Shown here in pieces: positions 8,845 to 62,654 of a stretch of DNA of 64,000 nt. The notes beneath the pieces were generated by a model. That model did no database searches. It saw only the letters and a program-made list of their open reading frames with translations, and was not told where the DNA came from. The stretch lies in NCBI GenBank assembly GCA_964482735.1, contig CAYZYV010000004.1, forward strand, positions 65,737 through 129,736, read 5' to 3'. The stretch comes from an uncultured Candidatus Saccharibacteria bacterium. Its GTDB lineage: Bacteria; Patescibacteriota; Minisyncoccia; Phycocordibacterales; UBA9973. The translations under genes and the position numbers were made by a program. Numbering within the stretch: the first letter of the stretch is position 1; each line of letters opens with the position of its first letter.

Positions 8845-8940
8845 TATATAATATAAATATAGGTTATTAAAATTAAAAATAGCACTTCGCGTCCCGTAGT
8901 AAATTTTAAATGCATTCGATTTAAAATTTTACCTCTGGGG
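8845..8940 (+). mobile_element. 96-nt hairpin insertion element flanked by 29-bp direct duplication of the fpg 5' terminus
   Basis: ttgttgttacttcaggtagctctggcatg occurs identically at 8816..8844 and 8941..8969. The core agcacttcgcgtcccgtagtaaa...ctctgggg is about 80 percent identical to 57025..57117. Confidence 0.55.
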
Positions 8941-9010
8941 TTGTTGTTACTTCAGGTAGCTCTGGCATGGCTGATTTTTAAGGAACGAAGTGACTATAAA
9001 AATCGCCAAA

Positions 9011-13230: not shown

Positions 13231-13279
13231 AAAACAGTAAGACCCAAATATCTTCATATCTGGGTCAAACTGTTTTATG
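13231..13279. terminator. Bidirectional terminator hairpin
   Basis: gtaaaacagtaa-gaccca-loop-tgggtc-aaactgtttta nested inverted repeats. Confidence 0.5.
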
Positions 13280-13280
13280 T

Positions 13281-13397
13281 GATCCCGGCAGGAATCGAAC
13301 CTGCATCATAACTTCCGCAAAGTTACGTCCTATCCCCGCCCGACTGGAACGACCACTAATCTTGTCCAGTCGTTCGGGCGGGCATTGAATGACAACG
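13281..13397 (-). pseudogene. Partial tRNA-Arg-like copy (D-arm to 3' end, lacks 5' acceptor strand) carrying a 48-nt GC hairpin insert in the D-loop
   Basis: Anticodon arm TAACT-TTGCGGA-AGTTA, T-arm GCAGG-TTCGATT-CCTGC, and 3' CGGGATC-A. Insert 13336..13383 ccgcccga...tcgttcgggcgggc. Confidence 0.5.
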
Positions 13398-13401
13398 CTT
13401 G

Positions 13402-13473
13402 TGCTCTCAGTAGGAATCGAACCTACATCATAACTTCCGCAAAGTTACGTTCTATCCATTGAACTATGAGAGC
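13402..13473 (-). tRNA. tRNA-Arg (anticodon GCG as read from the loop)
   Basis: Perfect cloverleaf on the minus strand: GCTCTCA-TA-GTTC-AATGGATA-GAAC-G-TAACT-TTGCGGA-AGTTA-TGAT-GTAGG-TTCGATT-CCTAC-TGAGAGC-A. Confidence 0.75.
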
Positions 13474-13706
13474 AACTTATTTTTTAAATATTTTCGACCA
13501 GAAGCGGTCTTCCAATATTTTTCTTTTTCTACTGCCTCTTTCAGGGTTGAACACTTTTCAAAATAAACTAAGTCAAACGGAGCATAATGCTTGTTGGACT
13601 TTGTTATTTTACTATTATGTTCAGACAGTCTCTTTTCTAGATTTGAACAGAAACCTTTATAGTAAAAGTCTAAAAATTTACTTTTTATGACATATACATA
13701 ATACAT
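13464..13706 (-). CDS. Mini GIY-YIG nuclease domain protein (80 aa)
   Basis: YVYVIKS...YYKGFCSNLEKRLSEHN is a GIY-YIG core. The start codon lies inside a partial tRNA copy and the stop overlaps the tRNA-Arg 5' end. Confidence 0.7.
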   Translation of the reverse strand: MYYVYVIKSKFLDFYYKGFCSNLEKRLSEHNSKITKSNKHYAPFDLVYFEKCSTLKEAVEKEKYWKTASGRKYLKNKLLS

Positions 13707-13783
13707 AAGTTACATCCTATTCCCGCCCGACTGGAACGACTACCAATCTCGTCCAGTCGTTCGGGCGGGCATTGAATGACTGG
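13700..13783 (-). repeat. Second partial tRNA-Arg-like fragment (D-arm to anticodon stem) with the same 48-nt hairpin insert
   Basis: agttacatcctattc + ccgcccgactggaacgactaccaatctcgtccagtcgttcgggcgggc + attgaatgac; the insert is at 13717..13764. Confidence 0.5.
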
Positions 13784-17381: not shown

Positions 17382-18155
17382 CTAGCCCTGTGAGTCTTGC
17401 TTATTTTCAATAAATTGTTTAAAACCCTCTATGTCTTGATTAGATCCTAATATATGAATTTGTTCTGATGAGTTAAATACTGCGATATCATCACCAAGAG
17501 TACCTTGTTCTACCACGTTTTTAATTATCGTACCATCAAACTCATTTTTTCTAGCATACTCTGCAATTTCATCAGTGGAAATATCTGACACAACAACCTC
17601 ATCAACTGTATAAAATTGTTTAGCATTCTGGTATTGTTTGGTTTTAAATATATCTGATTTTGATGAAAAATATTCTGACTTTATATCAAATTCATCAGTT
17701 GCATCTAATCCAGTTTCTTTATCAACAACCTTATACCCAACTCCCTGATAATTTGCCCCTTTAAAATCTACCTCGTAAGGATTTGTAATATCTATGATTA
17801 CTGAATATATTTTTTCACCCCCCTCATACGAAGTTCCAAGTGGAATACTTTTAAAATATTGTTTTGCTACTTCATAGTTTTTAGTAAAAAAGACAACATT
17901 ATCAGGAGTCCCATACGCTTTAGATTTTATGTCTTCAGATGTATTATCAAACTCATCAAATGTGCTAGCACTGCCATGATATACGATATCTTTTATCTTA
18001 CTCTCTGGGAAAATAGTATCTAAATATTCAGAATATTGTTCTTTTGTCCCAATTTGTACTAATTCTGGATTTTGTTCAAATACAAAATCCACACCCTCTC
18101 TAATGTTAGGTTTTTCTACTCTATTTTCTTGGGTTATTTTTGGCAATCCTTCCAT
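17382..18155 (-). CDS. Hypothetical protein
   Basis: 257-aa ORF with no confident family assignment. Confidence 0.45.
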   Translation of the reverse strand: MEGLPKITQENRVEKPNIREGVDFVFEQNPELVQIGTKEQYSEYLDTIFPESKIKDIVYHGSASTFDEFDNTSEDIKSKAYGTPDNVVFFTKNYEVAKQYFKSIPLGTSYEGGEKIYSVIIDITNPYEVDFKGANYQGVGYKVVDKETGLDATDEFDIKSEYFSSKSDIFKTKQYQNAKQFYTVDEVVVSDISTDEIAEYARKNEFDGTIIKNVVEQGTLGDDIAVFNSSEQIHILGSNQDIEGFKQFIENKQDSQG

Positions 18156-18250
18156 ATATGTAAATTATACCATAAATATATAATTTGAGATACTTGAGTC
18201 TTCCGATACTTTGTTTTTATTGCGGGGATACTCGTGTTAGGACTTTTCAC
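18156..18250 (-). promoter_or_regulatory. Second copy of the palindromic-operator promoter/leader
   Basis: About 75 percent identical to 17245..17345, including the palindrome and the -10 region. Confidence 0.45.
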
Positions 18251-18296
18251 TGACAAGCCCCATAAGGTTATTTTTAATAAATTTATTTTACCATAA

Positions 18297-18315
18297 CGAC
18301 GTATCTCGTGCGAAC
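18297..18315 (+). repeat. Putative att-like repeat L of the serine-integrase element (aacgacgtatctcgtgcga)
   Basis: It matches 21907..21925 (aacgacacatctcgtgcta) at 16 of 19 positions, and the pair bracket the integrase and its cargo. Confidence 0.4.
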
Positions 18316-18451
18316 CAAAAAAGTGACAAAAGTGACACTACTTAAGCATATAAAGTTACATATAAATGTCACTTTTTAACAATGATTATGAGACGAATCC
18401 ATAGTTCTGCATAGACTTAGCAAAACTATTGTTCTCTGACACCACTAGTAT

Positions 18452-19771
18452 ATGGAAACATATACAACAGCTAGGATTAATAAGGAAATATTGATTCAAG
18501 CACCAAAAATTAAATATGTATTGTATGCTCGTAAATCAACCGAATCAGAAGAAAGACAAGTGCTTTCTATTGATTCACAAGTTAAAGAAATGTTACAACT
18601 TGCTGAACGAGATGGTTTAGAAGTGGTTGAGATTAGAAGAGAATCACATAGTGCTAAAGAATCAGGTCAAAGACCTGTATACAGAGAAATATTAGAAGAT
18701 ATACGACGAGGTAGGTTTAATGGAATACTAACATGGGCACCAGATAGACTTTCAAGAAATGCAGGTGATTTAGGAAGTATAGTTGATTTAATGGATCAAC
18801 AATTGCTTTTAGAAATAAGAACATATGGGCAACATTTTAAGAATTCACCAAATGAAAAGTTTCTGTTAATGATTCTCTGTTCTCAGGCAAAACTTGAGAA
18901 TGATAACAAAAGTGTAAACGTAAAACGTGGATTAAGAACAAGGTGTGAAATGGGTTTGCGACCAGGAGTAGCACCAACTGGATACTTGAATGAAAAAAGA
19001 ACAGATAGGAAATGCCAAGCAATATTAGACCCAGAACGAGCACCAACTATCAAAAAGATGTTTGAGAAAGTAGCCTATGAACACTGGAGTGGGAGAAAAT
19101 TATATAACTGGCTTCGATTTGATTTAAACTTCAGAACATCTAATGGAAAGAAACATCTAAGTTTAGGCAATATATACAAGATACTAGATAATCCTTTCTA
19201 TTATGGAGTATTTGAATATCCTAAAAAATCTGGTAATTGGTATACAGGACAACACGAACCGTTAATAACAAAAGAATTATTTAACTTAGTCCAAGATCAA
19301 ATCAAAAGTAATGTGCTTCGAATTGAAAACAAAGAATTTGCCTTCACAAAAATGATGACTTGTGGACTTTGTGGATCTGGAATATCAGCCGACGAGAAGT
19401 TTAAGAAATACAAGAATGGAACTATTACAAGATATGTATATTATGGTTGTACTAAAGCTAGAGGTACCGACTGTAAATGTGGTTATACCGAAGAAAAAAA
19501 TATTCTCAAACAATTTGAGGAGTTAATTGAAAAAATAGATCTCAACGAGATCCAAATAAAAGAAAAAATAAAAGCTGATGTTGAAAAGTTCTCTAAAATG
19601 CAAAATTTCTTTTTAGGGACAAAAGAAAAACCCAAAATATCAAATATTGATATTCGAGGATATGCTAGATATGTATTGAAGGAAGGGAGTGATGTTGAGA
19701 AAAGAGAATTGTTGGGGTGTTTGAAAAGCAGGATATTGTTGAACAATAAGAAAATATCACTTTTGAGATAA
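18452..19771 (+). CDS. Large serine recombinase (phage-type integrase)
   Basis: N-terminal resolvase catalytic motif VLYARKSTESEERQVLSIDSQ, a recombinase domain, and a zinc ribbon CGLCGS...YYGCTKARGTDCKCGY. Confidence 0.85.
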   Translation: METYTTARINKEILIQAPKIKYVLYARKSTESEERQVLSIDSQVKEMLQLAERDGLEVVEIRRESHSAKESGQRPVYREILEDIRRGRFNGILTWAPDRLSRNAGDLGSIVDLMDQQLLLEIRTYGQHFKNSPNEKFLLMILCSQAKLENDNKSVNVKRGLRTRCEMGLRPGVAPTGYLNEKRTDRKCQAILDPERAPTIKKMFEKVAYEHWSGRKLYNWLRFDLNFRTSNGKKHLSLGNIYKILDNPFYYGVFEYPKKSGNWYTGQHEPLITKELFNLVQDQIKSNVLRIENKEFAFTKMMTCGLCGSGISADEKFKKYKNGTITRYVYYGCTKARGTDCKCGYTEEKNILKQFEELIEKIDLNEIQIKEKIKADVEKFSKMQNFFLGTKEKPKISNIDIRGYARYVLKEGSDVEKRELLGCLKSRILLNNKKISLLR

Positions 19772-28509: not shown

Positions 28510-29184
28510 ATGGTAAAGAGAGGACCAAAGCCAAAAGCAATAATAAGTACAAAATGGACTTCTGGTTTAGCCTATGCGATTGGGTTGCTTGCAACAGACG
28601 GTTACTTATCAAAAGATGGACTTCTTGTAGATTTGACCTCCAAAGACAAAGAACAGTTAATGAATTTTTCTAAATGTGTAGGTTTTAATTTTAAAATAGG
28701 GGAAAAAATAAACGGTAAAGGTAATAAGAATTTAAGAATTCAATTTAAAAATAGGATTTTCTATGATTTTCTTTTGTCTATTGGATTATCACCAAAAAAG
28801 TCTTTGACTATTAGTAAGGTAAAAGTACCAGATAAGTATTTCTTCGACTTTTTGAGGGGGTGTTTTGATGGTGATGGGTCATTTTATTCTTATTGGGACA
28901 AAAGGTGGTGCTCGAGTTATATGTTTTATCTAGAATTTACTTCTGGTAGTATTGAATACATTAATTGGCTAAGGGAAGAATTAAGAAAAAGACTTGGAGT
29001 AAAAGGACATATTACACATAGTAAACTAGGAAATACCCACAATTTAAAATACGCAAAAAAAGAATCCCTAGAAGTAATTAAAAATATGTATTATAATCCA
29101 AAGGTTGTTTGCTTGTCTCGGAAAAAAGAAAAAATAAAAAAGGTTCTTAAACAAGAAAAACAACAACAAAAAAATAATAAATAA
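28510..29184 (+). CDS. LAGLIDADG homing endonuclease (two-motif, free-standing) immediately upstream of tRNA-Leu
   Basis: Two LAGLIDADG-like motifs, AIGLLATDGYL and FLRGCFDGDGSF, and a basic C-terminus. Confidence 0.65.
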   Translation: MVKRGPKPKAIISTKWTSGLAYAIGLLATDGYLSKDGLLVDLTSKDKEQLMNFSKCVGFNFKIGEKINGKGNKNLRIQFKNRIFYDFLLSIGLSPKKSLTISKVKVPDKYFFDFLRGCFDGDGSFYSYWDKRWCSSYMFYLEFTSGSIEYINWLREELRKRLGVKGHITHSKLGNTHNLKYAKKESLEVIKNMYYNPKVVCLSRKKEKIKKVLKQEKQQQKNNK

Positions 29185-29188
29185 CAAT

Positions 29189-29270
29189 GCCCGGGTGGTG
29201 AAATTGGTAAACATGCTAGTATGAGGTGCTAGTGCCGCAAGGCTTGGAGGTTCAAGTCCTCTCCCGGGCA
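29189..29270 (+). tRNA. tRNA-Leu (anticodon GAG)
   Basis: Acceptor GCCCGGG/CCCGGGC, anticodon arm CTAGT-ATGAGGT-GCTAG, long variable arm, T-arm GGAGG-TTCAAGT-CCTCT. Confidence 0.75.
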
Positions 29271-32610: not shown

Positions 32611-33024
32611 ATGAAAATAGAAAATTTTGCAGGGTGTTTAATTATTGAAAATGGAAAGGTTCTTTTAGTTCAAGAAAAACACAAAGAAGCTTATGGTCTT
32701 TGGTCACTACCCCTTGGACATAGTGAGGAAAATGAAAATGAAAAAGAAACAGCTATAAGAGAGACAAAAGAAGAAACAGGGTTAAATGTTTCTCTGGATA
32801 AAAATAAAACCTTAGAACTTCAAGGAAGAGAATTTAAGAGTACGAGTAATTTTGATGACAATATAATAAATTTAACTATTTTTCAAGCAAAAATCACTGG
32901 TGGTAGTTTATGTATAGGAAATGATATTCTGGATATAAAATGGTTTTCTGTAGATGAACTAAATCAAATTCAATTGAGAGGGGAATGGATTAAATATTTT
33001 GTTGATAAACTGGGATATAAATAG
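32611..33024 (+). CDS. NUDIX hydrolase
   Basis: Nudix box GHSEENENEKETAIRETKEETGL. Confidence 0.75.
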   Translation: MKIENFAGCLIIENGKVLLVQEKHKEAYGLWSLPLGHSEENENEKETAIRETKEETGLNVSLDKNKTLELQGREFKSTSNFDDNIINLTIFQAKITGGSLCIGNDILDIKWFSVDELNQIQLRGEWIKYFVDKLGYK

Positions 33025-33043
33025 TTGTATCATTTCTTTGTTC

Positions 33044-33090
33044 AAAAATAGTTCTAACATCCTCCACCACGGCACCAAAGAATAAAATAA
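33044..33090 (+). repeat. Left copy of a 46-47 nt direct repeat bracketing the DGR1 cassette
   Basis: aaaaatagttctaacatcctccaccacggcaccaaagaataaaataa versus 35905..35950, about 43 of 46 identical. Confidence 0.5.
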
Positions 33091-33309: not shown

Positions 33310-33909
33310 ATGAAATACAATGATTTTACCCTAGGACAAATTGAAGCAGTTTTAAACAAACTAGGTGGAATAGAAGGCGTAATGGACTTTCTTTCTGGCA
33401 AAACTATTGTGAAGGTTCCATCGGATGAAAAAACCTTGTTCAATGTATGGAAAACTATTAAACTCGGCAATTACAAAAATGCCGATGAGTTTCGTAAGGC
33501 ACTCAAAAAAAATGGTTTCAAAACCGGCGACTGGGCAAACGACATCCTCGACAAACCCGCATTTACAGTAGCTGGAGCAGAAGAAGAAATCCAGTTGGTG
33601 AATGTTTCAGTAGCTGACCTTGGTTTCAAAAACGGTGCCACTTACAAGGGTATCTGTGCTAAAGCCAAAGAACTTGGCTTGGAACTTTGTCCCAATGAAG
33701 TCGGTCCACAATTGCGTTTGCAATACAAAGACCAGCCCAAGGGCGAACACCTGTGTATTGCAATGGAACCAATTACCGACTCGTTTGGCAACCTCAGCAT
33801 CTTCCACGTTGGACACGATGACGATGTTTTGTGGCTCTATGGCTACTATGGCTATTCTGTCCCTTTCTGGAGTGCTTACTACCGTTTTGTTTTCCGTCTT
33901 CGCAAGTAG
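33310..33909 (+). CDS. DGR1 variable (target) protein; C-terminal variable region
   Basis: The last 136 nt (VR1, 33772..33907) match TR1 with about 17 mismatches, all but one of which lie at TR adenines. Confidence 0.75.
   Translation: MKYNDFTLGQIEAVLNKLGGIEGVMDFLSGKTIVKVPSDEKTLFNVWKTIKLGNYKNADEFRKALKKNGFKTGDWANDILDKPAFTVAGAEEEIQLVNVSVADLGFKNGATYKGICAKAKELGLELCPNEVGPQLRLQYKDQPKGEHLCIAMEPITDSFGNLSIFHVGHDDDVLWLYGYYGYSVPFWSAYYRFVFRLRK
33772..33907 (+). repeat. DGR1 variable repeat (VR1)
   Basis: Aligned to TR1 34267..34402. TR A maps to VR G/C/T at about 16 sites, including AAC-type codons. Confidence 0.8.
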
Positions 33910-34266
33910 CACTTGGACCTTGTTTACTTTGGTCTCTTTTGACCCTTTGGACTTTGTCCTTAAAAAAGTTTTTGAAGTATCACACAACCTCTATGACCCC
34001 TGTATAATTAAAAAAACAGGGGTTATTTTTTTGTGCTAAAATAAATATGGTAGTAGGTGAATATGTGGAAGATTAAGGTTTTCCGCTACCGAACCCAGTA
34101 TCCATACATCGAGAGTATTTGCGACCACGGTTTCAAATAGAGTGATGTATGTAGAAACTTCAAAAAATGAAGATACTTGGTGTAGAAAGCTGGGTGATTT
34201 TATATCACGAATAAGGTTCAACCCCGAGAGTATTCAAAGGGTGGTGGGTTAGATGGCTTACTATAC

Positions 34267-34402
34267 ATTACCGACTCGGATGGCAACCTCAACATCTTCA
34301 ACGTTGAACACGATGACGATGATTTGTGGCTCAATGGCAACAATGGCAATTCTGTCAATTTCTGGAATGCTAACAACCGTTTTGTTTTCCGTCTTCGCAA
34401 AT
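34267..34402 (+). repeat. DGR1 template repeat (TR1)
   Basis: Noncoding 136-nt copy of VR1 that keeps adenines where VR1 varies. Confidence 0.8.
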
Positions 34403-34424
34403 CTTTTCATTTCTCTCTCACTAT

Positions 34425-34748
34425 TTATTTGGGAGAGTTTTGTTTTATAAGTTGTCCATTCCAACCACCAAGTATTTTGCCTATCTCATCTATCCCTGCA
34501 GAAAGAGTAATATATTTTTTATCATCTAATGCTTTAATTTCCCATAGAACCATCAAAAGTATTTTTAAGGTGTCTGTTTTTCTTATCGCTAGTCGGACCC
34601 ACGGAGGTTTTTCTTCTCTAGATAAAAAACTAGCAATAGAAATTGCTTCTATAATTTCCACAAAGATAGTATCAATTTTTTGTCCTAGAGAGTGTTTGTG
34701 TATTTTAGGCAGAGTTTGGTAAAAAGTAATCCAAATTAGATAAGTCAT
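34425..34748 (-). CDS. avd: DGR accessory variability determinant (Avd-like four-helix-bundle protein), divergent from RT1
   Basis: 107 aa from the internal Met. The C-terminal GIDEIGKILGGW resembles the bAvd EVGRILGSW region. It lies between TR1 and RT1. Confidence 0.6.
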   Translation of the reverse strand: MTYLIWITFYQTLPKIHKHSLGQKIDTIFVEIIEAISIASFLSREEKPPWVRLAIRKTDTLKILLMVLWEIKALDDKKYITLSAGIDEIGKILGGWNGQLIKQNSPK

Positions 34749-34776
34749 TTTTGCTTTTGCCAGTAGGGGCAAAAGC

Positions 34777-34787
34777 GGGGGGGGGGG
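34777..34787. repeat. G11 homopolymer in the 52-nt avd1/RT1 divergent intergenic region
   Basis: ggggggggggg sits 14 nt upstream of the RT1 ATG and 29 nt upstream of the avd1 ATG, and it is unusual in an AT-rich genome. Confidence 0.7.
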
Positions 34788-34800
34788 TAAAATCATTACT

Positions 34801-35805
34801 ATGTCTCGTATACAATTTAGTCATACATATCAATATATCATTTCTACTGAAAATCTCCTCCTTGCTTGGAAGGAGTTTTTGAAAGGCAAAAAATCAAGGA
34901 AAGATGTTTTAGAGTTTGAAAGAAACTTGATGACTAATATCTTAAAACTTCACAGCGAACTCTCAAATAAAACATATAAACATTCTGATTACCAAGCATT
35001 TGATATATCTGACCCTAAACCACGAAGCATACATAAAGCAAAAGTGCGGGACAGATTACTTCATCACGCACTCTATCGCGAACTTTATCCATTTTTTGAT
35101 AGAACATTTATAGCCGACTCATATTCTTGTAGGAAAAATAAGGGAACGCATAAAGCAATGCGGAGGTTTCGGGTGTTTTCAAATAAAGTATCAAAAAACA
35201 ATACAAAAACTTGCTGGGTTTTGAAGGGTGATATACGAAAGTTTTTTGGGTCAATAGACCAGGAAATACTTGTTGAAATAATTAAAGAATATATTTATGA
35301 TAAAGATATAATTTCGTTATTATTTGAAATTATTGTAAGTTTCCAATCTACAAAAAAAGATGTTGGGTTACCTCTTGGCAATTTAACATCACAAATACTT
35401 GTGAACATTTATATGAATGAGTTTGACCAGTTTGTAAAACATAAACTAAAAGCAAAATACTATATTCGTTATGCCGATGATTTTGTTATTATGTCTGACA
35501 AAAAAGAATGGCTTGAAAACTTATTGCCACAAGTAGCAATTTTTCTTGAGATACGGCTCAAATTATTGCTTCATCCAGACAAGGTTTTTATAAAAACTCT
35601 TGTCTCTGGAGTTGATTTTCTCGGGTGGGTCCATTTTCCCGACCATCGGATAGTAAGAACCATAACTAAACGCAGAATGTTAAAACATATTAGACAAAGG
35701 GAAGGCAAAAAAGAAACGGTCCAGTCCTGTCTTGGGCTCTTAAGCCACGGTAATGCGAAGAAACTTTCTAACTCAATAACTATGAAATATGTAATTGAAA
35801 AATAA
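34801..35805 (+). CDS. DGR reverse transcriptase (RT1)
   Basis: RT motifs with the DGR-typical LPLGNLTSQ (SQ rather than QG) and YADD (RYADDFVI). Only 334 aa, with no maturase or endonuclease domains. Confidence 0.85.
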   Translation: MSRIQFSHTYQYIISTENLLLAWKEFLKGKKSRKDVLEFERNLMTNILKLHSELSNKTYKHSDYQAFDISDPKPRSIHKAKVRDRLLHHALYRELYPFFDRTFIADSYSCRKNKGTHKAMRRFRVFSNKVSKNNTKTCWVLKGDIRKFFGSIDQEILVEIIKEYIYDKDIISLLFEIIVSFQSTKKDVGLPLGNLTSQILVNIYMNEFDQFVKHKLKAKYYIRYADDFVIMSDKKEWLENLLPQVAIFLEIRLKLLLHPDKVFIKTLVSGVDFLGWVHFPDHRIVRTITKRRMLKHIRQREGKKETVQSCLGLLSHGNAKKLSNSITMKYVIEK

Positions 35806-35904
35806 AGGATTTATTAAAATAGTGAGAAGTAGAGCAGGGTAAAATTAGACCATTATAATAGGTTGGAACTCCGGAATATAAATTGCTGCATCGTTTCTTC
35901 TCTT

Positions 35905-35950
35905 AAAAATAGTTCTAACATCCTCTACTACGGCACCAAAGAATAAATAA
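35905..35950 (+). repeat. Right copy of the direct repeat bracketing the DGR1 cassette
   Basis: aaaaatagttctaacatcctctactacggcaccaaagaataaataa. Confidence 0.5.
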
Positions 35951-42591: not shown

Positions 42592-42645
42592 AACAGCCGA
42601 GGTCGGACCTCGTACGAGGTCCGACCTCGGCTGTTATCCACAGGT
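42592..42645. repeat. GC-rich REP-like perfect palindrome (44 bp) plus conserved atccacaggt tail; second copy at 62584..62654
   Basis: aacagccgaggtcggacctcgtacgaggtccgacctcggctgtt is a perfect inverted repeat. Confidence 0.6.
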
Positions 42646-42804: not shown

Positions 42805-43593
42805 GTGAAAAACAAACTCTTAAAATCAGATAATAAAACTACAGGGTTCACTTTAATTGAACTCTTAGTCGTTATCGCAATCATTGGAATTTTATCAGCC
42901 GTAGTTGTCGCTTCGCTAAACAGTGCAAGAGAGAAAGGAAAGATTGCTTCTATTAAATCCACCTTAAAACAACTATATAACCAAGCAGCCATCAATCAAG
43001 CAGAATATGGTAGTTTTGCAAACTCTAATACATCATATTCAGATTTAACTTGTACAGGCCCAGGAGGTAATCTAGCTAAAATAGCTCAACCACTCATTGA
43101 TCAAGGAATTATAGTTAAATGCTTTAGTTTTAATAGTCCGGCATCTGGAGATTTGTCCCTTCGCTTTGCTGCAACCGCTCTTATATATGATACAAATGAA
43201 CTCAAAGCATGGTCAGTAGATGAAAACGGTGTAGTTAAATGGGATACTCATGGAGTTAATACTGATGGGACAACAAGATCAACAGATATAACCATGGCAT
43301 GGAAGGACCTAAATGATATCACTATAGCTATGAACGCTTGTGCGAAAAATGGTGGTCGTCTTCCTTCTGTGGAACAATTTCGAACCCTGTTTCATTCATG
43401 GTACTCATCTACTGGCAATGTGTCATATCTTCCAATACCAACAGAAGGTTCTTTTTCAAATGGTTACTACTGGTCATCAACTTCTGTACCGCTTTGGCCA
43501 GAGACTAGATCATATTCTTTGATCACAGAGAGCTCAAATATAGGATTCTCTGGTTCGTTGAGTTCTGGTTATTATGTCCGTTGTGTTAGATAA
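42805..43593 (+). CDS. Type IV pilin-like protein with C-terminal lectin/FGE-like DGR-target-type domain (paralog 2; no cognate TR found)
   Basis: GFTLIELLVVIAIIGILSAVV prepilin motif; C-terminal GGRLPSVEQ...YYWSS...GYYVRCVR. Confidence 0.7.
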   Translation: MKNKLLKSDNKTTGFTLIELLVVIAIIGILSAVVVASLNSAREKGKIASIKSTLKQLYNQAAINQAEYGSFANSNTSYSDLTCTGPGGNLAKIAQPLIDQGIIVKCFSFNSPASGDLSLRFAATALIYDTNELKAWSVDENGVVKWDTHGVNTDGTTRSTDITMAWKDLNDITIAMNACAKNGGRLPSVEQFRTLFHSWYSSTGNVSYLPIPTEGSFSNGYYWSSTSVPLWPETRSYSLITESSNIGFSGSLSSGYYVRCVR

Positions 43594-45756: not shown

Positions 45757-46536
45757 TTGTATAATAAAACTATGATTAAGAATTATAAAAACACTAATAA
45801 TGCCTTTACTCTCATCGAACTCCTCGTCGTCGTCGCAATCATCGGAATACTCTCCTCAGTAGTCATCACATCACTAAACTCTGCAAGAGAAAAGAGCAAG
45901 ATTGCTTCTATTAAATCCACCTTAAAACAACTATACAACCAAGCTGCCATCAATCAAGTAGAAAATGGTAGTTTTACTGGATCTAATCCTTCATATTCAA
46001 ACTTAACCTGTTCTGGCAACTTAGCTCCAATAATTAAACCACTAGAAGACCAGGGAATAATAGTTAAATGCTTTAGTTTCTATGGAAGTCCCTATGGAGG
46101 AAATTATACAGGAGACGATTATAACAGATTCGCCGCCACGGCCCTCATCTACGACACAGGAGAACTCAAAGCATGGTCTGTAGATGAAAACGGTGTAGTT
46201 AAATGGGATACACAAGGAGTAAACTCAACAGGAGCTTTTGTTACCCCTGACATTACAGCCTCATGGACTAATGCTCAAAACAGATGTGCTTTATCTGGTG
46301 GACGTCTCCCTTCTATTGAACAATTGAGAACTCTATCTCATGCATGGTATTCTAAAGCTAATACTGATGGAGATGTAGACCCTTGGGCACCTCTTGGTTT
46401 CGTAGCAAGCATCTACTGGTCTTCTACCCCCGTTCCGTCGTCGCCTACTACGCTCGCTTACGGCCAGATCATGGCCTATGGTAGCTTGACCTCCTACAGT
46501 CAGACTCTCGGGTACTATGTTCGCTGTGTTAGGTAG
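45757..46536 (+). CDS. DGR2 variable (target) protein: type IV pilin-like N-terminus plus C-terminal lectin/FGE-like domain carrying VR2
   Basis: AFTLIELLVVVAIIGILSSVV prepilin motif, and a C-terminal ...YWSSTPVPSSPTTLAYGQIMAYGSLTSYSQTLGYYVRCVR encoded by VR2. Confidence 0.8.
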   Translation: MYNKTMIKNYKNTNNAFTLIELLVVVAIIGILSSVVITSLNSAREKSKIASIKSTLKQLYNQAAINQVENGSFTGSNPSYSNLTCSGNLAPIIKPLEDQGIIVKCFSFYGSPYGGNYTGDDYNRFAATALIYDTGELKAWSVDENGVVKWDTQGVNSTGAFVTPDITASWTNAQNRCALSGGRLPSIEQLRTLSHAWYSKANTDGDVDPWAPLGFVASIYWSSTPVPSSPTTLAYGQIMAYGSLTSYSQTLGYYVRCVR

Positions 46537-46556
46537 TAGTGTGTTCGCCTAGAATT
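46391..46556 (+). repeat. DGR2 variable repeat (VR2), which extends 20 nt past the stop codon (IMH-like region)
   Basis: The 166-nt alignment to TR2 has 19 mismatches, and every one of them is at a TR adenine. Confidence 0.85.
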
Positions 46557-46565
46557 CATTATTAC

Positions 46566-46630
46566 ATCCCGACTTTATGTCGGGACATTCTCTCTCGAAT
46601 GACTCCGACGTAAGGAGGAGCATTCGAGAG
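46566..46630. promoter_or_regulatory. Two GC hairpins immediately 3' of VR2 (DGR homing-associated stem-loops)
   Basis: tcccgac-tttat-gtcggga, and the 12-bp stem ctctctcgaatg...cattcgagagag. Confidence 0.5.
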
Positions 46631-46635
46631 AGGGC

Positions 46636-47076
46636 TTGTCGTTTATGTCTATTTATTCTAATCTTCCAATATACAACAATACATTTTCATTGTTAAAAGA
46701 ACTATACATAAGAGTTCCTAAATTTAGTAAAGAATATAAATATCTTCTAGGGGAGAAAATGATTAAATGCTGTGTGGACAGTCTTGTGTTAATTAATCAA
46801 ATTAGTTCAAGTAAAGAAAGGGTCGAAAGAATAAATCTTTTGATGAGATTAGAAGATAACATGAATGTACTAATGGTGCATGTCCGAATAGCTAATGAAC
46901 TCAATCAATTAGTTAAAAAGGATAATTATTTCTTTTTATCTCAAAAAATAATAGAAATTTTAAATCAAGCAGAAAATTGGAAAAAGTTTCTTCAGAAGAA
47001 GAAATGTTCCCAGAATTGCACCTCTGATGGTAGTGCAAGTGTGGATAAAAAAATTCCTCTCCCCACCCCTTGTTAA
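46636..47076 (+). CDS. avd: DGR accessory variability determinant (Avd-like) of DGR2
   Basis: 146-aa helical protein located between the target gene and TR2-RT2. The C-terminal IEILNQAENW aligns with the bAvd EVGRILGSW region. Confidence 0.6.
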   Translation: MSFMSIYSNLPIYNNTFSLLKELYIRVPKFSKEYKYLLGEKMIKCCVDSLVLINQISSSKERVERINLLMRLEDNMNVLMVHVRIANELNQLVKKDNYFFLSQKIIEILNQAENWKKFLQKKKCSQNCTSDGSASVDKKIPLPTPC

Positions 47077-47135
47077 AAGATCTATCACTTTAGACAAGGG
47101 ATAAGAGGTTATCATGATTGAGTTGGGGAGACTAG

Positions 47136-47301
47136 CTCTTGGTTTCGTAGCAAACAACTACTGGTCTTCTACCCCCGTTCCGTCGTCGCCTACTACGCTC
47201 GCTTACAACCAGAACATGAACAATGGTAACTTGAACAACAACAGTCAGACTAACGGGAACTATGTTCGCTGTGTTAGGTAGAAGTGTGTTCGCCTAGAAT
47301 T
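47136..47301 (+). repeat. DGR2 template repeat (TR2)
   Basis: Intergenic between avd2 and RT2. It is rich in AAC codons (NNQNMNNGNLNNNSQTNGN) that appear mutated in VR2. Confidence 0.85.
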
Positions 47302-47337
47302 TTGTTTCCAATTTTCTGCTTGATTTAATATTTTAGA

Positions 47338-48411
47338 ATGACAATTTTCACAATTAAAAATATATATAAAGCATATAATGATTGCTTAAAACACAAGAAA
47401 AACACAACTAATGCTTTAAAATTTGAGCTAAACAGAGAGAAGAATTTGTATTCATTACTCAAAGATTTACAAAACAGAACTTACAAAATATCAAGACATA
47501 TATGCTTCGTGGTAACAGTGCCAACGGCTAGGGAAATATTTGCAGCTGATTTTCGAGATAGAATAATTCACCATGTACTATATAATGAGATAAGAGATTT
47601 ATTTGAAAGTAATTTCATTGAAGAATCATATGCTAATAGATTAGGCAAAGGGACTCATATGGCTGTTCGAAAATTAAGATATCATATAGCAAGAGGAGGA
47701 AAGGATGGTAGAAGATTATATTATTTAAAGATGGATATCAAGGGATTTTTCAGAAATATAGACAAAAATATTCTATACGAAGAAATGAAAATGATTATTG
47801 TGAGAAGTGACAAAGATAAATCGTGGAAAGACGAAATACTGTGGCTAACAAAAATGATTATTTTTCATGATCCAACATCTAATTATGTTTTCAAAGGGGC
47901 GAATAATACAAGAGGCGTTGTCCCTAAGCACAAATCTTTGTTTTATGGAGATAGAAATAAAGGTTTACCAATAGGGAATTTAACTAGCCAATTTTTTGCA
48001 AATATTTATTTAGACAAACTTGATCATTTTGTAAAAGAGGAATTAAAATTTTATCGCTATCTTAGATATGTTGATGATTTTATTATCCTAGATGAAGACA
48101 AAGAAAGGTTAGAAGAAACGATAAAAAAAATTGATCTATTTCTTAACCAGAAGTTAAATTTAAAATTGGCCCCCGATAAGATATTTCTAAGGCAGGTTAA
48201 TCATGGAATAGACTTTCTTGGTTATTATATTAAACCGACTCATACTCTAGTAAGAAGAAAGGTGGTTCGGAGGTTTAAAGACAAAATGTATAAAAATAAA
48301 AACAAAGAAGATGGCTTATACTCTATAAAATTTCTGTCTGTTATAAGATCTTATTTTGGACATTTCGAGCATGCAAATAGTTATAATTTGAGGAAAAAAT
48401 TAATAGGTTAG
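47338..48411 (+). CDS. DGR reverse transcriptase (RT2)
   Basis: 357 aa, with GLPIGNLTSQ and YVDD (RYVDDFIIL) motifs, and about 40 percent identical to RT1 across the finger/palm region. Confidence 0.85.
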   Translation: MTIFTIKNIYKAYNDCLKHKKNTTNALKFELNREKNLYSLLKDLQNRTYKISRHICFVVTVPTAREIFAADFRDRIIHHVLYNEIRDLFESNFIEESYANRLGKGTHMAVRKLRYHIARGGKDGRRLYYLKMDIKGFFRNIDKNILYEEMKMIIVRSDKDKSWKDEILWLTKMIIFHDPTSNYVFKGANNTRGVVPKHKSLFYGDRNKGLPIGNLTSQFFANIYLDKLDHFVKEELKFYRYLRYVDDFIILDEDKERLEETIKKIDLFLNQKLNLKLAPDKIFLRQVNHGIDFLGYYIKPTHTLVRRKVVRRFKDKMYKNKNKEDGLYSIKFLSVIRSYFGHFEHANSYNLRKKLIG

Positions 48412-48479: not shown

Positions 48480-48935
48480 ATGAATAAAAAAATAGAAATC
48501 TACACAGACGGATCTTCTCTCGGTAATCCTGGCCCCGGAGGATGGGGGACTGTTGTGGTTGAAAATGAAAAAATCGTCTTTGAGCTTGGGGGCTTTGATA
48601 AAAACACGACAAATAATCGCATGGAAATAAAAGCGGTTATTGAAGCGTTGAGATATGTAAATAAAAAATACGGAGGTCTAGAAGTCTCGATCGTCGCAGA
48701 CTCCAATTATGTTCTTTTGGGGATTACTGAATGGATTCACAACTGGCAACGAAATGGATGGAAAACTGCCGGCAAAAAACCAGTTCTTAACCAAGAACTC
48801 TGGCAAGAACTCTGGCAACTAAAAGAAGAATCAACTTCAAAGATTTTATGGCATAAAGTTAAAGGTCACTCAGGCCACGTTTTCAACGAGCGAGCAGATG
48901 AGATAGCGACAACAAAAGCCTCACTACAAAAGTAG
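48480..48935 (+). CDS. rnhA: Ribonuclease HI
   Basis: IYTDGSSLGNPGPGGWG, MEIKAVIEAL and HSGHVFNERADEIA catalytic motifs. Confidence 0.8.
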   Translation: MNKKIEIYTDGSSLGNPGPGGWGTVVVENEKIVFELGGFDKNTTNNRMEIKAVIEALRYVNKKYGGLEVSIVADSNYVLLGITEWIHNWQRNGWKTAGKKPVLNQELWQELWQLKEESTSKILWHKVKGHSGHVFNERADEIATTKASLQK

Positions 48936-49103: not shown

Positions 49104-50396
49104 ATGTCGAAAAAGGAAATTATTTTAATAATCTTTTTGGCAATAATAGCGGGAGTTCGCTATTTGTTTTTTATCCCCCAAGCTCCTAATTTTGATTATT
49201 TAGTAGGGGAAAATATAGGATTCGTTGGGCAAATTGTAGAAAATCCAGATGAGAGATTGAACAGTCAGCAATTAAAAGTAAAAATTAATAATCAAAAAAT
49301 TTATTTACTTGTTTCAACTAGCAAAGCAACAGAATACAAGTATGGTGATAAGATTTATGCAGAAGGGAAGCTCTCAAAACCAGAAAATTTTATCACTGCC
49401 CAAGGAAAAGAATTTAATTATATAAAATATCTTGCAAATCAAGATATTTATTTTTTGCTTAAATATCCCAAAATAGAAATCATTACCCGAGATAACGGGA
49501 ATTCGGTTTATGCTTTTCTGTATAAAATAAAAAATTCTTTTATAAAAAGTATAAACAAAGTTATCGACTTACCAGAGAGTAGTTTGGCCGGAGGTTTGGT
49601 TTTAGGATTAAAAGGCGGTTTTGATGAAGAAATGAGAAATAACCTTATAGAAACAGGTACTATCCACATTGTGGCGTTGTCTGGTTATAACGTTTCAATT
49701 GTAGCAGAGGGTGTGATGAAGGCTTTTAAGCAAGTATTTTCTCAAAACATCTCTATCGTTTTAGGTATGGTGACTATTTTGCTTTTTGTAATTTTAACAG
49801 GAGCAGAAGCGACTGCTGTTAGAGCAGGAATTATGGCAACCATTATGCTCGTAGGACGAATGACTGGTCGAAAATATTTAGCTGGTCGTGGACTGGTGAT
49901 TGCTGCACTTTTAATGATCACATATGATCCGAGAATTGTGACCGACATGTCTTTTCAGTTATCTTTTATTGCTACAGCGGGAGTTTTATTTTTACCAACA
50001 AAAATTTTGAAATATTTTTCTTTCTTACCGGTTCGCTTTGGAGTCAGAGAAATGGTGGTGTCGACAGTTTCAGCAACTATCTCTGTTTTGCCTATTGTTT
50101 TATATAGCACAGGAGTGTTATCGATAGTTTCTATTCTTGTTAATTTGTTAATACTTTTATTTATTCCTTATGCTATGCTTTTTGTTTTTATCGCTGGAGC
50201 TTTGGGACTAATTTCTAAGGCGATAGCTATACCTTTTGGTTTTATCGCATTTATTATTCTTCACTATATTTTATCTGCAATAAATATCTTTGGCTCGTTT
50301 AGATTTTCGAGTTTTACAATTCAATCCTTCCCACTTATTATTGTTATTTTATTATATGCAGGTATTCTTTGGTGGGTTTTTATAAAAAAGAAATAA
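49104..50396 (+). CDS. comEC: DNA internalization competence protein ComEC/Rec2, N-terminal DUF4131 plus competence channel domain
   Basis: 430-aa polytopic membrane protein with a ComEC-type core (HIVALSGYNVSIV). Confidence 0.7.
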   Translation: MSKKEIILIIFLAIIAGVRYLFFIPQAPNFDYLVGENIGFVGQIVENPDERLNSQQLKVKINNQKIYLLVSTSKATEYKYGDKIYAEGKLSKPENFITAQGKEFNYIKYLANQDIYFLLKYPKIEIITRDNGNSVYAFLYKIKNSFIKSINKVIDLPESSLAGGLVLGLKGGFDEEMRNNLIETGTIHIVALSGYNVSIVAEGVMKAFKQVFSQNISIVLGMVTILLFVILTGAEATAVRAGIMATIMLVGRMTGRKYLAGRGLVIAALLMITYDPRIVTDMSFQLSFIATAGVLFLPTKILKYFSFLPVRFGVREMVVSTVSATISVLPIVLYSTGVLSIVSILVNLLILLFIPYAMLFVFIAGALGLISKAIAIPFGFIAFIILHYILSAINIFGSFRFSSFTIQSFPLIIVILLYAGILWWVFIKKK

Positions 50397-50415
50397 TGTT
50401 TATTAACATCTCTGT

Positions 50416-51306
50416 TTGATAAATGTTATTATAAAAAGGAAAATGAAAAAATATAAAAAATATCTACCATATCTTTTGATTCTAGTTATTCTCGGTGTAA
50501 CTATTTTTGTTTGGCAGTCCGTTTTAAGTAATAAAAATCCGAGAATGCTCAAGGTCGCATTCCTGGATGTGGGGCAGGGGGATGCTATATACATTGAGGC
50601 TCCAAATAAAAAACAGGTCTTGATAGACGGAGGAAAAGATTCAAAACTTTTGTACAGCTTATCGAAAGTAATGCCTTTCGCTGATCGATCTTTGGACTTG
50701 TTAATTATTACTCATCGAGATATGGATCATATCGGAGGTTTACCAATGCTTCTAGACGGGTATCGTGTTGAAAAAGTTATTGATAATGGAATTAAAGATG
50801 AAACAGAAATATCAAAATCTGTGGATGAAAAAATTAAAAGTCGATCTATAGAAAGTGAAGTGGCTCAAAAAGATATGCGAGTTTTTCTTGATAAAGAAAA
50901 TGATATTTATTTAGATGTTATTTATCCCAATAGAGATGTTTCAGATATTGATTCAAATGATGGTTCTGTTGTGGTTAAATTGGTTCATGGAGAAAATTCA
51001 TTTTTGTTTACAGGAGATGCAAGTATTTATGCTGAAAGTTTAATAATGTGGGAAGAAGGCGAGAACGATTTAGATATCGATGTGCTTAAATTGGGTCACC
51101 ATGGAGCAAGGTCGTCATCAAGTTTACTCTGGCTCGAGAAGACCAGTCCAGAGTTGGCCATAGTTTCTGCCGGTAAAAATAATTCTTATGGGCATCCGCA
51201 CAAAGAGACACTGGAGAGATTGGAAAATTTAAAAATTCCATTTTTATCAACTGCAGAGATTGGAACAATTTTAATAAAAAGTGATGGTCAAAAATTGGAG
51301 TACTAA
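50416..51306 (+). CDS. comEC: ComEC C-terminal metallo-beta-lactamase-fold domain encoded as a separate ORF
   Basis: VAFLDVGQGDAIYIE, ITHRDMDHIGG and LKLGHHGARSSSS motifs. It lies 19 nt downstream of the ComEC channel ORF, in a different frame. Confidence 0.7.
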   Translation: MINVIIKRKMKKYKKYLPYLLILVILGVTIFVWQSVLSNKNPRMLKVAFLDVGQGDAIYIEAPNKKQVLIDGGKDSKLLYSLSKVMPFADRSLDLLIITHRDMDHIGGLPMLLDGYRVEKVIDNGIKDETEISKSVDEKIKSRSIESEVAQKDMRVFLDKENDIYLDVIYPNRDVSDIDSNDGSVVVKLVHGENSFLFTGDASIYAESLIMWEEGENDLDIDVLKLGHHGARSSSSLLWLEKTSPELAIVSAGKNNSYGHPHKETLERLENLKIPFLSTAEIGTILIKSDGQKLEY

Positions 51307-57024: not shown

Positions 57025-57117
57025 AATATAGTTTGTTTAAGAGATGTGCTTTAAAAAAACACTTCCCGCCCCGTAGTAAAATTTAAGAGCATTCGTTTTA
57101 AATTTTTACTTCTGGGG
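57025..57117 (+). mobile_element. 93-nt hairpin insertion element flanked by 32-bp direct duplication of the fusA 3' terminus (including the stop codon)
   Basis: tcgctacagctatcattgaaaaaaggaaatag is identical at 56993..57024 and 57118..57149. The core acttcccgccccgtagtaaaattt...ttcgtttt...acttctgggg is related to 8845..8940. Confidence 0.55.
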
Positions 57118-57232
57118 TCGCTACAGCTATCATTGAAAAAAGGAAATAGTATACTTAAAATTAAACCCCCTTTTGGCTTTCGCCAAAAGGGGGTTTAATG
57201 ATATAATATAAACCTATTAATCAAAAAACATT

Positions 57233-62583: not shown

Positions 62584-62654
62584 AACAGCCGAGGTCTTTC
62601 CTCGTACGAGGTCGGACCTAGTACGAGGTCCGACCTCGGCTGTTATCCACAGGT
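62584..62654. repeat. Second copy of the GC-rich REP-like palindrome, with an internal expansion
   Basis: aacagccgaggtc-[tttcctcgtacgaggtcggacctagtacgaggtccgac]-ctcggctgttatccacagg. Confidence 0.6.

Follow-up and report, generated by a model that had tools for sequence, protein, structure and literature searches.

The locus at positions 45757-48411 of the window, by which we mean the whole 64,000-nucleotide stretch of DNA that was analysed, is best explained as a genuine and complete chromosomal diversity-generating retroelement (DGR) of an uncultivated, ultra-small Patescibacterium, with the order target gene, avd, template repeat (TR) and reverse transcriptase (RT), that diversifies 12 codons in the lectin-like tail of a type IV pilin-like protein. 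We place the probability of this reading at roughly 0.8. An initial annotation had described a complete cassette of these components, and target, Avd-like gene, TR and RT were each recovered at the ORF coordinates it gave; the start codons that we consider likely lie inside two of those ORFs, the target beginning at ATG 45772 and avd at ATG 46645.

Re-alignment of the variable repeat (VR; 46391-46556, + strand) with the TR (47136-47301, + strand) gave 166 gap-free nt at 90% identity, reproducing the earlier alignment. The initial annotation had counted 19 mismatches; our count is 17, with 16 in coding sequence (46409, 46412, 46462, 46463, 46469, 46474, 46475, 46477, 46484, 46490, 46492, 46493, 46495, 46507, 46508 and 46513) and one after the stop codon (46537). 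Its assertion that all mismatches sit at TR adenines holds for 17 of these 17 (the TR contains 44 A; hypergeometric P = 1.0e-11), and mismatches at non-adenine TR positions, which it had named as contrary evidence, were looked for and numbered 0 over the 166 nt. The TR lies 59 nt downstream of avd and 36 nt upstream of the RT gene, is A-rich and has a single 55-aa remnant ORF across it as its coding content. Read in the target frame, it contains 11 AAC codons and one AAT codon. All 12 of these AAY codons are altered in the VR, every one of the 16 coding changes falls at codon position 1 or 2, and the AAC codons appear there as AGC, ATC, GGC, GCC, ACC, TCC, TAC and CTC, in agreement with the replacements listed earlier (GGC, ATC, GCC, TAC and others). 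The VR spans target residues 207-254 and the stop codon, and the variable codons are those of residues 213, 214, 231, 233, 235, 236, 238, 240, 241, 242, 246 and 248. Because the TR adenines lie almost wholly in the 12 AAY codons, only these 12 residues of the lectin module vary. The target stop codon (TAG, 46534-46536) is followed by 20 nt of further homology ending at 46556, as had been described. At the position of the 46537 substitution three related TRs carry T, and this difference is equally explicable as a T>A change in the window TR. Two paralogues of the target within the window (9808-10620 and 42805-43593) were considered as remote targets and rejected, as they have no TR match and their mismatches fall at all bases.

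The RT gene (47338-48411, + strand) encodes a compact protein of 357 aa, without maturase, endonuclease or RNase H domain, that matches Pfam RVT_1 at 71 bits and belongs to a large clade of Patescibacteria RTs, for which a homology search gave 7597 hits. It carries the motifs LPIGNLTSQFF, which includes the IGNLTSQ noted in the initial annotation, and RYVDDF; IGNLTSQ aligns with IGSLTSQ of the Bordetella DGR enzyme bRT, and YVDD with its YMDD. DGR RTs follow the rule [ILV]GxxxSQ where intron RTs have ...SP. The best PDB match is bRT itself (8ub7, E 6.2e-41), and the best group II intron RT is LtrA (E 4.5e-12).

One alternative combines an RT of the group II intron, retron or defence type with an unrelated duplication or gene conversion at the repeats. 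The top NCBIfam name for the RT is group_II_RT_mat (107.7 bits), and source labels of its relatives read 'group II intron' or 'retron-type' RT. That score is, however, far under the cut-off of 300, the NCBIfam group II, retron and Drt models all stay far below their cut-offs (no DGR RT family was returned), and bRT beats every PDB intron RT by ~29 orders of magnitude. At Rfam thresholds, which only tRNAs reach in the window, we found no intron or msr-msd RNA. Duplication or gene conversion does not give adenine-only mismatches (P 1e-11), and the true paralogues have no TR match. The initial annotation had named a group II intron or retron RT with its associated RNA as the finding that would speak against a DGR; with bRT closest and no Rfam intron RNA, sequence comparison instead supports grouping the RT with bRT and apart from group II intron and retron RTs, and we give the alternative a negligible chance.

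The gene between target and TR, avd (accessory variability determinant; 46645-47076, + strand), has an alternative TTG start at 46636, just after the second hairpin described below; the likely start, ATG 46645, matches the gene-caller start in the related locus L003. Its product matches Pfam bAvd at 44 bits (cut-off 40), bearing out the earlier call of an Avd-like gene. As the NCBIfam DivGenRetAVD score (36 bits) is below its cut-off of 80 and comparison with PDB sequences gave no meaningful match, we regard the product as a divergent Avd. The position of avd is the same in the L003, L015 and P0164 loci. A search for a duplex between avd and spacer, using inverted repeats and RNAduplex on the avd 3' end against the 110-200 nt after the TR, gave no significant pairing; for most loci the duplexes were no better than those of ~7% of the shuffled sequences.

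The 3' end of the VR (46514-46556, + strand) is a constant segment encoding ...YVRCVR* and continuing 20 nt past the stop. Across five related VRs, its A-site variation consists only of 46537 and one A>G in L004, and wherever its non-A bases differ between loci the cognate TR carries the matching change. We infer that this segment acts as the IMH. Over its 43 nt, VR and TR differ at one base only, and no IMH/IMH* distinction is visible; DGRs without distinct IMH and IMH* occur, according to Wu et al. (PMC5758913). Because the two 3' ends are identical bar this one base, directionality must rest on downstream sequence.

Downstream of the VR, the region folds with z-scores of -5.6 as DNA and -6.6 as RNA. 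Of the two hairpins that the initial annotation placed here, both are real and only the second is conserved. The first (46567-46585, + strand; a 7-bp stem with 5 G-C pairs and a 5-nt loop, TTTAT) starts 10 nt past the VR/TR homology and is invariant in four loci; its absence from L011 and L015 rules it out as a conserved cruciform. The second (46590-46632, + strand) forms a 12+4 bp stem, in which a single A is bulged, capped by a 10-nt loop, and ends 12 nt before the avd ATG. In eight sequences its 16 pairs are 100% paired, with nine compensatory pairs in which both sides have changed; 0 of 500 shuffles match this conservation, and slid controls pair at 42-61%. The same hairpin stands 3' of a relic VR in L004, without avd behind it. 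The second hairpin is the conserved element downstream of the VR, with a putative role in recognition. Phage DGR hairpins have a consensus 4-nt GRNA loop (PMC3240598), from which the window loops, at 5 and 10 nt, depart.

The target gene (45772-46536, + strand; alternative start TTG 45757) encodes the 254-aa database protein P0001, which is bimodular, with a type IV pilin-like part and a C-terminal Lcl_C/DUF1566 C-type-lectin-fold module. Its N-terminal region (45772-45966, + strand) comprises a prepilin leader followed by the FTLIE motif and by alpha-1, a hydrophobic helix, and the sequence MIKNYKNTNNA|FTLIELLVVVAIIGIL (leader MIKNYKNTNNA, 45772-45804) fits a class III signal, with a short basic leader, F+1, E+5 and a hydrophobic alpha-1. 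The N-terminus scores 30.2 bits against the NCBIfam model TIGR02532 IV_pilin_GFxxxE (cut-off 16.3) and 31 bits, above cut-off, against Pfam N_methyl; PDB mature pilin chains begin exactly at Phe12, and cleavage by prepilin peptidase is predicted before that residue. The earlier assignment of a prepilin N-terminus is upheld by these matches, except that the -1 residue is Ala (NNA|FTLIELLVV) and not the canonical Gly. Ala at the prepilin -1 position is non-canonical and partly tolerated. The paralogue at 42805 has G|FTLIELL. In the structure model, alpha-1 comprises residues 14-65, and the protein shows the pilin fold, in which an alpha-1 of ~53 residues packs on an antiparallel beta-sheet.

The tail had been called lectin/FGE-like. 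The C-type-lectin fold is borne out, and the family is Lcl_C/DUF1566: residues 150-259 of the TTG-start ORF match Pfam PF07603 at 34.9 bits, exactly the cut-off of 34.9, PF07603 is precomputed for most homologues, and the top structural match of the module is Lcl-CTD 8q4e. A Pfam search found no PF03781 (FGE-sulfatase) match at E<=0.01, and FGE structures appear only at Foldseek E ~1e-3, via the shared lectin-like fold. The target thus joins a type IV pilin-like protein to a module with the C-type-lectin fold.

Where this protein resides is less firmly indicated. The initial annotation suggested the tip of a pilus-like fibre; a tip or minor pilin, a major pilin and a mere membrane anchor would all be compatible with the data. 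The same DGR might accordingly display its variable lectin at the cell surface on a membrane anchor or on a short pseudopilus or competence-type stalk. Besides the Ala at -1, this alternative is favoured by NCBIfam matches of the N-terminus that are as good to the T2SS pseudopilins GspG/GspH and the competence pilins ComGC/ComGE as to PilA, all below family cut-offs, by ComEC just downstream of the cassette, and by the scan of window ORFs, among which no pilus assembly or prepilin peptidase gene was found. We consider it rather unlikely.

Under the preferred reading, a DGR acting on a type IV pilus-like adhesin, the TR would be transcribed within a longer RNA, and an RT-Avd complex would copy this TR RNA into cDNA, placing random nucleotides opposite template adenines. 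The cDNA would then replace the VR at the target 3' end, where the constant 3' segment, and probably the conserved hairpin too, would direct it. In this way up to ~15^12, or ~1e14, variants could arise with no change to the scaffold or to the C-terminal Cys. Most likely, a prepilin peptidase would process the target, and the product would become part of, or be attached to, a type IV pilus-like fibre. The cell would thereby have an adhesin whose specificity can be adjusted, and host cells or particles are plausible objects of its attachment.

Related cassettes show the same mutational signature. VR/TR mismatches fall at adenines in 13 of 13 cases in each of L003 and L004 and in 10 of 10 in L018; L015-17, where the gene calls were in error and start codons needed correction, have 17 A mismatches and one non-A mismatch at the alignment edge. 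In L012 the alignment overruns the repeat end, and it contains 14 A-site substitutions, a single non-A change and indels. When we compared three related cassettes with the window cassette, their VRs differed at 13-19 of ~41 shared TR-A sites and at 1-8 of ~120 non-A sites, and the two TRs mirrored the non-A VR differences in 25 of 25 cases. Because all 25 are mirrored in the cognate TR, TR-to-VR transfer went on after the lineages split, and these sequences point to continued retrohoming over that time. The L003 target is itself a mosaic, one block being 98% identical to a window paralogue and the rest 97-100% to the window target.

The cassette could instead be a recently inactivated relic in which retrohoming has ended. 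A single VR allele was found for the window strain, the target's 90% cluster has one member, and the L004 lineage keeps a pseudogenised former VR (26 of 38 TR mismatches at A, gene with a stop and an indel), so that DGR targets do fall out of use. Against a relic at the window locus, every ORF is intact, the catalytic YVDD is present, VR and TR have zero non-A mismatches over 166 nt, and at every related locus the VR has received the TR changes specific to its lineage. We consider inactivation improbable, and the DGR may be active at present, for which the comparison between lineages gives indirect support. Searches for further alleles of the strain gave no direct sign of current activity. An exact look-up of the RT protein returned two short Logan contigs, which end at the repeats or skip across them and are uninformative, and the only contig recovered by a metagenome scan with the VR/TR pattern, 1.2 kb long, belongs to another species. 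L002 was rejected as a variant allele: within an identical block of 32 nt it passes from the second paralogue into the target, and from there into the TR, and it is most likely an assembly chimera.

The neighbours of the cassette are housekeeping genes (RecJ, RNase H, ComEC, TIM and PGK), and non-DGR paralogues of the target are scattered in the chromosome. Among related genomes the cassette occurs in two different neighbourhoods, with homology confined to 45799-48400. These two settings, the viral origin of many DGRs and the DUF1566 targets of Bacteroides phages (PMC8143477) speak for an alternative in which the element is phage-borne and the 'pilin' a phage receptor-binding protein. Both neighbourhoods, however, consist of housekeeping genes, the best viral-contig RT is only 37% identical and leaves no close viral relative, and a class III signal peptide on the target, with paralogues elsewhere in the chromosome outside any DGR, also speaks against it; we judge a phage origin very remote. 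An rnhA-like gene directly after the RT (48480-48935) was discarded as an accessory, as it is absent from the L003 and L012 cassettes, which have DUF4015 there instead; its adjacency to the RT is probably coincidental.

A broader picture of the chromosomal DGR is possible, which we offer tentatively and at well under even odds. Patescibacteria of this RT clade would use a DGR-programmable type IV pilus adhesin for host or particle recognition, combining 12-codon hypermutation of the lectin face with paralogue segment swapping and the retirement of targets as relics; the 12+4-bp hairpin with its 10-nt loop would be a lineage-specific target-recognition structure, and the RT coding region would hold the functions of the spacer RNA in compressed form. 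The pilin-lectin target itself yields a testable hypothesis: that these ultra-small cells, which probably depend on hosts, adjust the binding preferences of their pili. The compact cassette of ~2.6 kb, with its 36-nt TR-RT gap and covarying hairpin, is also material for comparative work on DGR target recognition.

The window cassette is a well-supported further example of a known system, constitutes no new kind, and leaves the picture of what DGRs are unchanged. Modular type IV pilins such as Streptococcus sanguinis PilB and PilC likewise join a pilin module to an extra C-terminal binding module, but their grafted modules are not known to be hypermutated by a retroelement. Bordetella phage BPP-1 (mtd-avd-TR-brt) shares the gene order, an Avd with a compact RT carrying IGxLTSQ and YxDD, a VR at the target 3' end with a constant tail, an inverted repeat downstream of the VR, and AAY-codon mutagenesis of a C-type-lectin fold. 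It differs in that its target is a phage tail-fibre tip rather than a cellular pilin-like protein and its VR is of the Mtd rather than the DUF1566/Lcl_C class; the window VR and TR, unlike those of BPP-1, have virtually identical 3' ends, and the BPP-1 hairpin has 8 bp and a GAAA loop (PMC3240598) in place of 12+4 bp and a 10-nt loop. The Bordetella element also requires a 140-nt spacer RNA (bioRxiv 10.1101/2023.10.23.563531), in contrast to the 36-nt TR-RT gap found here.

The Legionella pneumophila LdtA DGR ('CLec2'/category d; Wu et al. 2018, PMC5758913) is likewise chromosomal, has the order avd-TR-RT and places its VR in the DUF1566-type C-type-lectin domain of a surface-exposed protein; LdtA, however, is an outer-membrane lipoprotein (PMC5758913), whereas the window target would be exported and anchored through a prepilin (class III) signal and alpha-1 helix and its host is a Patescibacterium. 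The DGRs of Bacteroides type V pilus adhesins (bioRxiv 10.1101/2024.11.15.621889) also vary the lectin-fold adhesive end of a pilus protein, but these Mfa/Fim-like Bacteroidota pili are built from lipoprotein precursors and share no evolutionary origin with type IV pilins. Treponema denticola TvpA differs in being of the FGE-sulfatase type with no pilin module, and its DGR serves as the example of architecture C, which contains HRDC (PMC5758913).

The DGRs of Patescibacteria (CPR) surveyed by Paul et al. 2017 come from the same host radiation. PMC6642488, citing that survey, speaks of 'putative pilin structures' in connection with DUF1566 targets, so a link between pilins and DUF1566 DGR targets in CPR has already been mentioned in print. 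The pilin-Lcl_C, avd, TR and RT cassette is itself present in Nomurabacteria genomes public since 2015-16, and near-identical cassettes with GG|FTLIELL...Lcl_C targets occur in GCA_000998465.1 and GCA_001786215.1. Among CPR DGRs, 90% have architecture 'B3' and their VRs are mostly unclassifiable (Wu et al., PMC5758913), and their targets are typically without recognisable domains (Roux et al., PMC8144416), for which reason their purpose has been unclear (PMC8144416, PMC5758913). Unlike that majority, the window lineage combines a Bordetella-like gene order with a fully assignable target, and is an exception: its target is readable as a pilin with a variable lectin module attached.

The diversity-generating retroelement DGR2 contains a 166-nt ungapped direct repeat (90% identity) formed by the variable repeat (VR, 46391-46556) at the 3' end of the target gene and the template repeat (TR, 47136-47301). 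We counted 17 VR/TR mismatches rather than the 19 listed in the initial annotation, and all 17 fall at TR adenines (44 A per 166 nt; hypergeometric P = 1.0e-11), in agreement with its claim that changes are confined to these positions. When read in the frame of the target gene, the TR contains 11 AAC codons and one AAT codon, all 12 of which are changed in the VR (to S, I, G, I, A, Y, S, T, S, Y, L and Y); the 13 further codons that carry A at positions 1-2 are unaffected. The 16 coding substitutions are all at codon position 1 or 2. Homology ends 20 nt beyond the target stop codon, as had been proposed, and the remaining mismatch is at 46537, the base immediately 3' of this codon. As three related TRs carry a T at the matching position, this mismatch may be a T-to-A change in the window TR and not a product of mutagenesis.

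Closely related cassettes were compared from three places (loci L003/L006, L004 and L012), together with a contig containing only a VR (L011). The RT of L003/L006 is 96% identical to that of DGR2 in a neighbourhood different from the window's, and L004 is syntenic with the window. VR/TR mismatches are at adenine in 13 of 13 cases in L003 and 13 of 13 in L004. Between loci, pairs of VRs differ at 13-19 of ~41 shared TR adenine sites and at just 1-8 of ~120 non-A sites. For all 25 non-A differences between VRs, the cognate TRs differ from each other in the same way, so the TR of each locus has continued to overwrite its VR since the lineages separated. These mirrored differences point to real mutagenic retrohoming, for which this between-locus comparison is the strongest evidence available here. 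In the L012 VR (L012 5620-5795), one nucleotide is missing opposite an AAC codon of the TR, which alters the last ~10 target residues (ending in ...NGSMFDVSGSSFLA versus ...YVRCVR before the stop); either the DGR made this indel or it is a mistake in a contig of 2.6x coverage.

The RT (47338-48411; 357 aa, Pfam RVT_1) has as its best relative among all solved structures the Bordetella DGR enzyme bRT (8ub7, E 6.2e-41), compared with E 4.5e-12 for the best group II intron RT structure and ~1e-7 for retron-type RTs. The motifs IGNLTSQ and RYVDDF align with IGSLTSQ and RYMDDI of bRT, supporting the earlier assignment of a DGR-type enzyme. NCBIfam returned no DGR RT family for this protein, its scores against the NCBIfam group II, retron and Drt models are all far under the cut-offs, and an Rfam search of the whole window matched only tRNAs. 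Two observations that the initial annotation had named as counting against a DGR, mismatches at non-A positions and a group II intron or retron RT, were thus both sought and neither was found, which favours a DGR. The proposed Avd-like gene between target and TR (46645-47076, start probably ATG 46645) exceeds the Pfam bAvd cut-off (44 bits vs 40). The ORF is divergent (36 bits against an NCBIfam cut-off of 80), and a PDB sequence search with its product gave no match. Whereas the Bordetella element requires a 140-nt spacer RNA (bioRxiv 10.1101/2023.10.23.563531), the gap between TR and RT start in DGR2 is only 36 nt; any spacer-RNA equivalent must sit within the RT ORF. A search for an avd:spacer duplex gave no significant result.

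An identical database protein places the target start at ATG 45772 (45772-46536, 254 aa). Its N-terminus (MIKNYKNTNNA/FTLIELLVVVAIIGIL) scores above the cut-offs of Pfam N_methyl and TIGR02532, and alignment to mature pilin chains in the PDB begins exactly at Phe12. The residue at -1 is Ala, not Gly as first described; related targets have Ala (L003, L004) or Gly (L012, L015, L018). Of the suggested fusion of a prepilin N-terminus to a lectin/FGE-like tail, the prepilin part is upheld and the FGE part is not, as Pfam found no PF03781 match in the C-terminal part, which instead reaches exactly the gathering score of Lcl_C/DUF1566 (PF07603). Intimin and invasin, along with many C-type lectins, are named under this part. 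Because Cys 80, 100, 172 and 252 are invariant or nearly so, they suggest a pair of disulfide bonds, and one of these would hold the constant ...RCVR tail in place.

Both hairpins predicted 3' of the VR are present. Hairpin 1 (46567-46585) is phage-type-like in stem length and VR distance, and is absent in L011 and L015. The conserved hairpin is hairpin 2 (46590-46632), in which standard pairs occupy 128 of 128 pair cells across eight sequences; 0 of 500 shuffles were as good and slid controls were 42-61% paired. Changes on both sides affect 9 of 16 pairs, in a small sample where some changes stem from a one-base register shift in the L015 CT tract. At the matching position L018 has a different, perfect 27-bp hairpin. 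As hairpin 2 also lies 3' of a decayed former VR in L004 with no avd behind it, it is tied to the target 3' end and not to avd expression. Five of its pair cells are G-U, and the hairpin may thus also act at the RNA level, as a terminator, for instance, or a processing site.

The pilin-Lcl_C family has more than 1284 matches, with several copies per genome and Candidatus Moranbacteria as the members' source labels; some homologues elsewhere have no adjoining DGR. Two intact paralogues in the window (9808-10620 and 42805-43593, the latter paralogue 2; with 50% and 65% identity to the target) have neither a TR match nor hairpin 2, and a terminator-like hairpin is instead found 3' of paralogue 2. 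The L003 target (L003 6001-6786) is a mosaic with respect to window 45944-46054 and paralogue 2: one 110-nt block matches paralogue 2 at 98% identity and the window target at just 55-82%, and over the following 340 nt identity to the window target is 97-100%. Segments thus appear to be exchanged between pilin paralogues. The paralogue 2 counterpart in L004 (L004 2877-3875) contains an in-frame stop and a 1-nt deletion, differs from the L004 TR at 38 positions (26 of 38 at A) and has a hairpin-2 copy downstream; it looks like a retired DGR target in a contig of ~1.2x coverage, where sequencing errors are possible. A Logan contig (SRR10083308; 1-700) that passes from paralogue 2 to target to TR, with its first switch within a 32-nt identical block, is most probably a chimera created by k-mer assembly, a caution that short-read assemblies misjoin pilin paralogues and DGR repeats. 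A GC-rich palindromic element (CGAGGTCGGACCTCGTACGAGGTCCGACCTCGGCTGTTATCCACAGGT) occurs at distant intergenic sites, 42598-42645, just 5' of paralogue 2, and 62590-62654, where it is tandemly reiterated.

DGR2 is flanked by housekeeping genes (upstream PGK, TIM, HIT and RecJ; downstream RNase H and ComEC, the last at 49104-51306 as two ORFs, DUF4131+Competence then Lactamase_B). The RNase H gene (48480-48935), directly 3' of the RT, was rejected as a cassette component, being absent from the cassette in the L003/L012 neighbourhood. Since the L003 and L012 cassettes are homologous to the window only over 45799-48400 and have different flanks, the four-part unit has been relocated, or rearranged, in one piece. 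IMG/VR held no close viral relative. Relatives of the RT number in the thousands in Patescibacteria. At 64% RT identity (L015-17, Nomurabacteria genomes GCA_001786215.1 and GCA_000998465.1) and 58% (L018), the order Lcl_C target, avd, TR, RT is retained, VR/TR differences are A-specific and targets start GG/FTLIELL or QG/FTLIELL; gene callers missed the true starts in L015-17, hiding the motif in annotation. The pilin-lectin target is thus conserved across the DGR2 lineage and present in long-public genomes.

A second, unrelated element, DGR1 (33310-35805), comprises a 199-aa target without a Pfam match (33310-33909), a VR (33772-33905) and TR (34267-34400) with 15 mismatches (14 at TR adenines, one T/G), a minus-strand gene that is probably avd (34425-34796) and an RT (34801-35805) just 34% identical to that of DGR2. 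The same divergent arrangement of avd and RT precedes the pilin-type cassette in L015-17. The entire cassette is bracketed by 93-nt direct repeats (32994-33086 and 35855-35947, 80% identical), which may reflect the edge of an insertion or a duplication. Elsewhere in the window, 13278-13780 holds a cluster of repeated tRNA-like segments, with tRNAs called at 13280-13350 and 13402-13473 and a 74-nt repeat pair without a tRNA call (13320-13393 and 13707-13780, 93% identical); tRNA introns have been reported in Patescibacteria (PMC13011429). Mobile-element-like genes lie within 17382-19771, where 17382-18155 of the minus strand encodes an ART-PolyVal ADP-ribosyltransferase and 18452-19771 encodes a large serine recombinase, and at 28510-29184, where a LAGLIDADG protein ends 5 nt 5' of a tRNA (29189-29270). 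The distant sites 8873-8941 and 57050-57118 share a 69-nt repeat at 84% identity.

DGRs are abundant in the Patescibacteria radiation (PMC8144416, PMC5758913), and DUF1566, with its C-type-lectin fold, is a standard DGR target domain (PMC4159848, PMC5758913). Paul et al. 2017 are credited, as cited in PMC6642488, with 'putative pilin structures' linked to DUF1566 targets, the rare domains listed with a VR in a 2024 survey include a pilin domain of GspG type (PMC11661182), and Bacteroides type V pilus adhesins are diversified by a DGR (bioRxiv 10.1101/2024.11.15.621889); our literature search found no paper analysing a type IV pilin-lectin target as such. Unlike the Bordetella prototype, DGR2 has essentially identical VR and TR 3' ends without a visible IMH/IMH* distinction, as in other DGRs described by Wu et al. 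(PMC5758913). The hairpin findings fit what has been shown for BPP-1, which needs a hairpin/cruciform 3' of its VR, although the DGR2 loops depart from the 4-nt GRNA rule of phage DGRs (PMC3240598). We conclude that DGR2 is a well-documented further example of an already known type of system, valuable for its covarying hairpin and for an unusually interpretable target in a group whose targets are mostly opaque.
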